Notes under the pieces: generated by a model
Seen by the model: only the letters and a program-made list of their open reading frames with translations
Told to the model about the DNA's origin: nothing
Databases searched by the model: none
Shown here: one piece after another, positions 49,638 to 50,490 of the stretch
Layout of the letters: every line of letters begins with the position of its first letter
Numbering within the stretch: the stretch's first letter is position 1
Position numbers and translations under genes: made by a program
IMG/VR virus record: IMGVR_UViG_3300010167_000010
Location: 256,001 to 320,000 of that record
Strand: one strand, 5' to 3'
Length of the DNA: 64,000 nt
From: a virus
Lineage: Duplodnaviria > Caudoviricetes

Positions 49638-49727
49638 ATGAGAATAAATAGCGTTCCGGCGTTATTTGCCCAACGTCAACTCGGGATAAATGAACTCGAG
49701 TTATCAAAACAAATGCAACAGGATTAG
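49638..49727 (+). CDS. 29-aa flagellin N-terminus peptide (mini-gene or remnant; not in ORF track)
   Basis: MRINSVPALFAQRQLGINELELSKQMQQD aligns with [29 protein letters not shown] of 50492; AAGGAGG RBS. Confidence 0.65.
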   Translation: MRINSVPALFAQRQLGINELELSKQMQQD

Positions 49728-49749
49728 CACTTTCCCATAACTAATTATT

Positions 49750-50490
49750 ATGAATAAAAATAATTTTGTTAAAGATTATATGGAAATTATTAAAAGTGCT
49801 AAAAATAGAAAATATGAAGTTCATAAATATGAAAAGCACCATATATTACCAAAATCTTTATTTCCATTATGGACCAACAGAAAATCTAATTTAATTTTAT
49901 TAACACCACGAGAACATATTAAATGTCATAAATTATTAGCTTATATTTATGGAAAAAATATGTGGCATGCTTATTGGCAAATGGCTATAGATAAAAAAGA
50001 TGGCCATAAACTAACACCAGAAGAATATGAAGAAGTTAGAATAGAACATTCTAAAAGAGTTTCAGAATTTAATAAGAAAAATAAAAAAAATCAAATTCCA
50101 TGGAACAAAGGTAAAAAAGGTTTACAATTTTGTTCAGAAGAAACTAAAAAACTATTAAGTCATATAAACAGTGGTTCTAATAATGCCTTTTTTGGAAAAA
50201 AACATACTGAAGAAACTAAAAAAAATATAGGTGAAAAAAGAAAAGGTAAACCTGCGTGGAATTCTGGAAAAATTGGAATTTATTCAAATGAATATAGATA
50301 TAAATGTGGAAATGGTTCTAGGGGTAGAAAAAATTCTATTGAAGAAATAGAAAGAAAAAGACTTAATTCCTTAGGAAAAATTTGGTGGACAAATGGTGAA
50401 GAAGACAAATTTAGTTTAATTTGCCCTGAAGGTTATTGGAAAGGAAGATTAAAAGTTAAAGGATGGAAAAATAAAGTCAAGGAGGACTAA
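49750..50490 (+). CDS. free-standing HNH homing endonuclease with NUMOD3 repeats
   Basis: [13 protein letters not shown]...[40 protein letters not shown]. Confidence 0.85.

Follow-up and report, generated by a model that had tools for sequence, protein, structure and literature searches.

It is likely that a 29-codon flagellin-like open reading frame (ORF) in the genome of a large phage, hereafter the stub, is a scar of gene replacement, consisting of the native leader and the first ~29 codons of a phage flaB allele that were stranded when an intact flaB and the homing endonuclease gene (HEG) linked to it recombined in at about nucleotide +91. The strongest support comes from recurrence, HEGs of this family being found beside flagellin genes in other contigs as well. 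The gene order places the stub beyond the HEG from the intact gene, and saturated synonymous differences (pS) together with a nonsynonymous divergence (pN) of 0.25–0.35 indicate that it derives from a different allele.

Locus Organization and Genomic Setting

The window, by which we mean the whole stretch of 64,000 nucleotides that was analyzed, covers positions 256001–320000 of a virus record that is 329 kb long and has direct terminal repeats; with this size and these repeats, the source genome is a jumbo phage. The locus occupies a block on the plus strand (49583–51383) in which a leader is followed by the stub (49638–49727), a free-standing HEG of 246 aa (49750–50490), an intact flaB of 284 aa (50492–51346), and a terminator-like hairpin (51352–51375; 9-bp stem with six GC pairs, then a T-rich tail). 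A junction of 22 nt (49728–49749) separates the stub from the HEG, and the Shine-Dalgarno sequence of the intact flaB (50479–50485) lies inside the last HEG codons. The initial annotation had described a 29-aa duplicate of the flagellin N-terminus beginning at 49638, with an HNH gene between it and flaB, and we find all of these features where it placed them.

The whole block is missing from a relative, L029, in which the homolog of the 106-aa gene preceding the block (49262–49582) directly abuts the homolog of the Metallophos gene following it (51384–52061). Thus, 49583–51383 is a 1.8-kb insertion relative to L029, and flaB is missing too at this empty site. Contig L013 is syntenic with the window phage, but its flaB is found beyond the Metallophos gene. 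L015, a metagenome contig almost identical to the window, differs from it at 2 of 6882 positions, both within the HEG; its stub region is identical, and the stub ORF is called as a 29-aa gene on that contig. A DNA search of GenBank phages with the locus gave no match, and a protein search of the same phages with the flagellin gave distant or fragmentary matches only. Downstream in the window, a 183-aa ORF (52152–52703) is also missing from L029, in which the homolog of 52700–52948 comes immediately after that of the Metallophos gene; this is another small insertion in a variable region.

In Pfam, the intact flaB matches almost the whole of Flagellin_N (2.9e-40) and of Flagellin_C (5.9e-24). 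Its named relatives are FlaB proteins of Treponema and other Spirochaetia (64–68% identity), and its closest relatives (74%) are encoded on metagenome contigs whose gene content is phage-like. One relative contig is named AustNasuHG, which suggests that a Nasutitermes hindgut was sampled. We set aside as irrelevant a very high-scoring 441-aa "flagellin" (P0002; L011:95–1420, on a 1.4-kb contig) that is internally duplicated or chimeric, joined at RIRE/RIRD motifs, and that arose either by natural recombination or during assembly. After the HEG-linked flagellin of contig L027 there is a 279-aa gene (L027:5054–5893) with a faint Pfam match to FlaA, the spirochaete flagellar sheath protein; additional filament components may thus be present in some of these phages.

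Xenologous Origin of the Stub

The stub ORF runs from an ATG at 49638 to a TAG at 49725–49727, encodes 29 aa, and has an AAGGAGG ribosome-binding site just upstream. Its product shares 15 of 25 residues with the adjacent flaB (E 6e-9, BLASTP, for that single comparison) and has no Pfam domain match, a piece of that size not being scored. It carries ~28 codons of the flagellin N-terminal segment only; the complete N- and C-terminal helical domains are absent. At the DNA level, local alignment detects homology to the 5' ends of phage flaB genes from about -57 to +91 relative to the ATG, ending at 49729, within the junction that precedes the HEG. The best DNA match of leader plus stub is L012 (92/127), followed by L013, L007, and the window's own flaB. 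Because the homology spans -57 to +91, the copied unit was a gene start together with its 5' untranslated leader.

The codon differences from flaB listed in the initial annotation (GCG/GCA, GCC/GCA, CGT/CGG, CTC/CTT, and GGG/GGA) are all present in a codon alignment, which further places a deletion of one codon after codon 4 of the stub. Against any phage flaB, codons 1–29 of the stub give a pS of 0.74–1.03 and a pN of 0.25–0.35; these are reported in place of a dN/dS ratio, which is not computable at saturated synonymous sites. Since the synonymous sites are saturated and the nonsynonymous sites are not, the stub came from a different, already diverged flaB allele, and is xenologous to the gene that it precedes. 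The earlier suggestion that the different codons reflect past protein-level constraint therefore holds, and the constraint is explained by the stub having once been part of a working flagellin gene. Working flaB alleles of this phage group differ among themselves with a pN of 0.06–0.33, and the pN of the stub is close to that range. Its divergence thus accumulated within a functional flagellin, and it is not a recent local duplicate gone to decay. The 5' ends of the stub and of the intact flaB are both about 60–70% identical to L012 and L013, and either may belong to the resident lineage.

The frame of the stub is open across the whole homologous part, and its sole indel is in frame until the last codons, where, as read by eye, a 2-nt shift just before a shared TTAGCA creates the TAG. 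An open frame fits weak selection, or simply a young age, as well. Given that a strong Shine-Dalgarno sequence and the ATG are retained, the stub is probably still translated, as a by-product.

The Homing Endonuclease Gene

The HEG matches NUMOD3 (1e-10, Pfam), phrog_655 "homing endonuclease" (1e-38), and phrog_12434 "HNH endonuclease" (1.6e-10). Among 15 homologs its HNH-type catalytic motif is conserved, with H30, H31, H56, and H60 invariant and N47 nearly so. Sequence searches matched no Pfam HNH model and, with either the single sequence or a 15-sequence profile against structures, no solved HNH structure; the sole structural match was the DNA-binding domain of I-TevI (1i3j, E 2e-4), in the NUMOD3 region. 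Four further matches to the HEG protein, all paralogous pieces, occur in the phage genome. A 150-aa truncated relative of the family (47877–48329) lies between a 124-aa ORF and a Metallophos gene and has no counterpart in the syntenic contig L013. Another truncated relative (P0127) adjoins a methyltransferase, so not all relatives are linked to flagellin.

Like the free-standing HEGs of T4-like phages, this gene matches phrog_655 and T4-like genes annotated "homing endonuclease," and, as in phage "HEG islands" (PMC10055350), members of the family adjoin a conserved gene, are present or absent between relatives, and bracket a gene in one contig (L018). HEGs that bracket conserved phage genes have thus already been described (PMC10055350). 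Unlike the T4-like HEGs, to which it is only 28–34% identical, the gene has an accessory flagellin, rather than a replication gene, as its putative target, and its insertion lies within the coding start of the target and leaves a translatable stub.

The motif ACTAATTATT occurs upstream of several HEG starts (window 49738–49749, L018:3225–3240, and L024:143–160) and is possibly a promoter element that travels with the HEG. The copy in the window directly adjoins the HEG ATG, as though part of the sequence that normally precedes such a gene were missing.

Recurrent Association with Flagellin Genes

In other contigs, most of them from large phages, at least seven members of this HEG family are located next to flagellin genes. 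The three closest full-length homologs (42–46% identity) lie directly 5' of intact flagellin genes in L023, L024-26, and L027, with the HEG stop overlapping the flagellin start; HEG1 of L018 and the HEG of L048-50 are likewise directly 5' of an intact flagellin. In each of these cases (L023, L024-26, L027, L018, and L048) a flagellin leader stands upstream of the HEG. A second HEG, HEG2 (P0160/P0151/P0146), lies on the 3' side of flaB, and its frame continues into a flagellin C-terminal remnant of ~57 aa. With the L041/L018/L016 series, which offers states before and after insertion, insertion sites can be placed at flaB nt -9, +12 to +15, about +90, +279, and +670. In the titles and abstracts reached by a targeted full-text literature search (homing endonuclease, flagellin, phage), we did not find this recurring HEG-flagellin pattern described.

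The initial annotation had associated variable length in relatives with neutral decay, and the stubs beside related HEGs are indeed variable, with 93 codons in L018, about 26–30 in L023, 5 in L016, 4 in both L024-26 and L027, and 0 in L048. The stub of L023 ends at about +83 to +89, beside a HEG that is 42% identical to that of the window, and if the mechanism proposed below holds, +91 would be at or near the insertion site. The 26 flagellin-derived stub residues of the L023 lineage are almost invariant in 12 protein variants, and the non-flagellin tail varies; we take this as a hint of constraint, at the protein level only. An IMG/VR search for that lineage found nothing. L025 and L027 share the leader, 4-codon stub, HEG, and flagellin as one block in two different contexts, and by analogy the stub of the window could have arrived already formed rather than having been made in situ.

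Partial duplications of conserved genes beside HEGs are known from fungal mitochondria, where fragments of atp6 or cob lie next to HEG ORFs (PMC6279837). In both settings the HEG separates the intact copy of a conserved gene from a fragment of one gene end. The fungal fragments are C-terminal, and the HEGs involved are of the LAGLIDADG or GIY-YIG type, whereas the fragments described here are mostly N-terminal, include the 5' leader, and accompany an HNH-type HEG with NUMOD3 at a flagellin target in a jumbo phage. HEG2 of L018 is the C-terminal counterpart of the fungal arrangement.

Genomes with and without the HEG

Presence and absence of the HEG are observed directly in collinear genomes. 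L047 and L048 are 86–89% identical on both sides of the site, and L048 carries a HEG, absent from L047, just after the Shine-Dalgarno sequence of the leader and ~9 nt before the flaB ATG. L041, a 386-kb phage contig, lacks the HEGs found in L018 and L016 and matches L018 at 94–95% on both flanks. Relative to L041 (3001–3848), flaB nt +279 to +669 is replaced in L018 (830–4201) by 2.9 kb that comprise HEG1, a foreign intact flaB, and HEG2. The resident gene is represented by P0240, a normal single flaB of 282 aa whose residues 1–93 are those of the L018 stub. At the C-terminus, P0240 exactly matches the remnant fused to the L016-type HEG2 (P0151) and is one residue off the remnant of L018 itself (P0160). 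L016 has the right junction (about +670) in common with L018 and has lost everything from codon 6 onward.

In L041 itself, the P0240-type flaB is broken into ORFs of 43 and 231 aa in different frames, by a frameshift or an assembly error, which suggests that phage flaB is dispensable. The 43-aa ORF (P0241) was considered as a further stub and rejected, since it results from a frameshift in an otherwise intact resident gene and is not a HEG scar.

L018:2286–2414 and L023:4740–4868 are identical at 126 of 129 positions, corresponding to nt +1 to +129 from the flaB ATG, and ~65–75% identical elsewhere. Such a patch in otherwise diverged genes argues that the flaB 5' end is a recombination hot spot. 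This patch encodes INSAKDGA where INRAGDDA, the most conserved flagellin motif, is usual, and the INSAKDGA version is possibly a cleavage-resistant target site.

We propose the following mechanism. The HEG would cut HEG-free flaB alleles in their conserved 5' region, and repair would copy the HEG and the adjoining flaB segment from a HEG-bearing allele. Where the far flank offers no homology, the outer end would be joined illegitimately, and the displaced end of the gene would stay on the far side of the HEG. The incoming flaB copy would bring its own simple ribosome-binding site. Searches found no intact parent allele of the window's stub and no HEG-free version of the window locus with flaB; thus, we infer its history in this phage by analogy.

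The L041/L018 pair also bears on the reading, offered in the initial annotation, of the stub as a remnant of a second flaB paralog truncated when the homing endonuclease invaded. A HEG-associated remnant is what we find, and that pair, which belongs to another lineage, directly shows a resident flaB displaced by a HEG-linked cassette. A second tandem paralog is not what the evidence points to; it points instead to the 5' end of a displaced flaB allele.

Leader Structure and Expression

The leader preceding the stub is predicted to fold (49583–49645) into two hairpins with a free energy of -11.3 kcal/mol (z -3.7). SL1 (49593–49612) has an 8-bp stem and an AGGA loop, and SL2 (49620–49637) presents the Shine-Dalgarno sequence AAGGAG in a hexaloop, so that of the two GGA sites one lies in a hairpin loop and one overlaps the Shine-Dalgarno sequence. 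The same layout of stem, GGA loop, and stem, with stems that differ in sequence, precedes flaB in L012, L013, L014, and L025, and a similar one was read by eye in L027. The stem sequence of SL1 differs in every relative and its GGA loop is kept. Across six leaders, compensatory changes on both sides keep the pairing of SL2 in four of its six pairs; these formal covariation counts concern SL2 only, the MAFFT leader alignment having misplaced SL1.

This arrangement resembles CsrA/FliW-controlled flagellin leaders, in particular that of the Campylobacter jejuni flaA mRNA, for which CsrA control with such a two-GGA layout (ahead of the flagellin start codon, an apical loop and the Shine-Dalgarno loop each present one GGA) was demonstrated experimentally (PMC4894983). 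Bacillus subtilis hag and Borrelia flaB are cited in that paper as further examples. Unlike those leaders, the one described here drives a 29-codon stub rather than a flagellin, and it is CsrA-type by predicted structure only. The native two-hairpin leader stands before the stub and not before the intact gene: at the start of the intact flaB, SL1 is gone and a small 4-bp SL2-like hairpin is found at the Shine-Dalgarno sequence. The conserved C-terminal Lys-Gly-Trp codons of the HEG (AAAGGATGG; 50461–50485) supply another GGA, which precedes that of the flaB Shine-Dalgarno sequence by 21 nt, and the same codons also sit just 5' of the flagellin start in L024 and L027. The GGA in these codons could be a candidate substitute CsrA site.

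A role for the leader and stub as a co-opted expression device is a possibility, if a rather doubtful one, and is compatible with an origin as a scar. Under this explanation the HEG, and perhaps flaB, would be translated by way of the CsrA-type leader, with ribosomes reinitiating 22 nt past the stub. The retention of SL1 with its GGA loop and of SL2 with its looped Shine-Dalgarno sequence, the layout of C. jejuni (PMC4894983), speaks for such a role. So does the region downstream, where no terminator-like site was found from the stub up to the start of flaB; the one detected within flaB belongs to the opposite strand. Coupling is plausible here because the HEG start at 49750 has no Shine-Dalgarno sequence visible by eye and follows the stub stop at a distance of 22 nt. 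However, the HEGs of L023, L016, L024, and L027 have, as read by eye, Shine-Dalgarno sequences of their own and are located 140–220 nt from the stub, and L048 has no stub ORF left; thus, coupling is not general in the HEG family. At most, ribosomes terminating at the stub would help start the HEG.

We also consider, as an unlikely extension, that the HEG family, by inserting just inside the flagellin start, gains a host-type leader responsive to CsrA/FliW. Endonuclease synthesis would then be gated by the flagellar assembly checkpoint, here through coupling from the 29-codon ORF; or the leader might titrate host CsrA, or the N-terminal peptide might be exported.

Alternative Origins of the Stub

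We consider it quite unlikely that the stub is instead the residue of a second flaB paralog in tandem, cut short where it stood when a HEG inserted and sequence was deleted. Spirochaetes often carry several flaB genes, and saturation of synonymous sites between the stub and the neighboring flaB is what old paralogs would show as well. Yet no tandem flaB without a HEG was found among the related phage loci examined, the empty-site relative L029 has no flaB at this position, and where the earlier state is known (L041/L018) a foreign copy entered and divided the only resident gene. These comparisons favor stranding of a displaced allele over truncation of a paralog.

The proposal that the 29-aa peptide is a selected decoy, which would compete for the export gate or a chaperone or poison filament growth, had been made in the initial annotation and received no support here. 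The strong ribosome-binding site and the open frame would suit it, but the peptide is a singleton cluster, with no known variants, by exact cluster look-up in a collection of 15 billion proteins; it has a deleted codon, and a proline inside the conserved N-terminal segment; and the lengths of analogous stubs span 0 to 93 codons. Moreover, the flagellin C-terminus, which is missing from the stub, is the part bound by the chaperones FliS and FliW. We therefore regard a decoy function as very improbable.

HNH/NUMOD endonucleases are often intron-encoded, but we give practically no weight to the stub being the first exon of a flaB gene split by a group I intron that contains the HEG, because no Rfam family matches, either at the gathering threshold or at E 10, the spacers of 22 nt (stub to HEG) and 1 nt (HEG stop to flaB ATG) leave no room for a ribozyme core, and the downstream flaB already has its own complete N-terminus. 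The precedent in its favor is that group I introns with endonuclease genes are reported, as cited in PMC3984707, in flagellin genes of thermophilic Bacillus. As far as that citation goes, flagellin genes are in both cases homes of mobile endonuclease-linked elements; unlike in Bacillus, the present locus has no intron, and a duplicated 5' end, rather than splicing, keeps the gene intact.

Implications

With the stub read as a scar of HEG-associated replacement, the 29-aa ORF should be annotated as a flagellin 5' remnant and not as a new peptide gene. In this phage the intact flaB has become separated from its native CsrA-type leader, which bears on models of how phages use flagellin. The stub is a scar of known kind, and the more interesting by-product of the analysis is the flagellin-specialized HEG family. 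One family of HNH-type HEGs appears to target repeatedly the flagellin genes of large phages of gut and termite-gut bacteria, exchanging flagellin cassettes and leaving scars that are dated. The family is thus convenient for studying how free-standing HEGs move when one flank is without homology.
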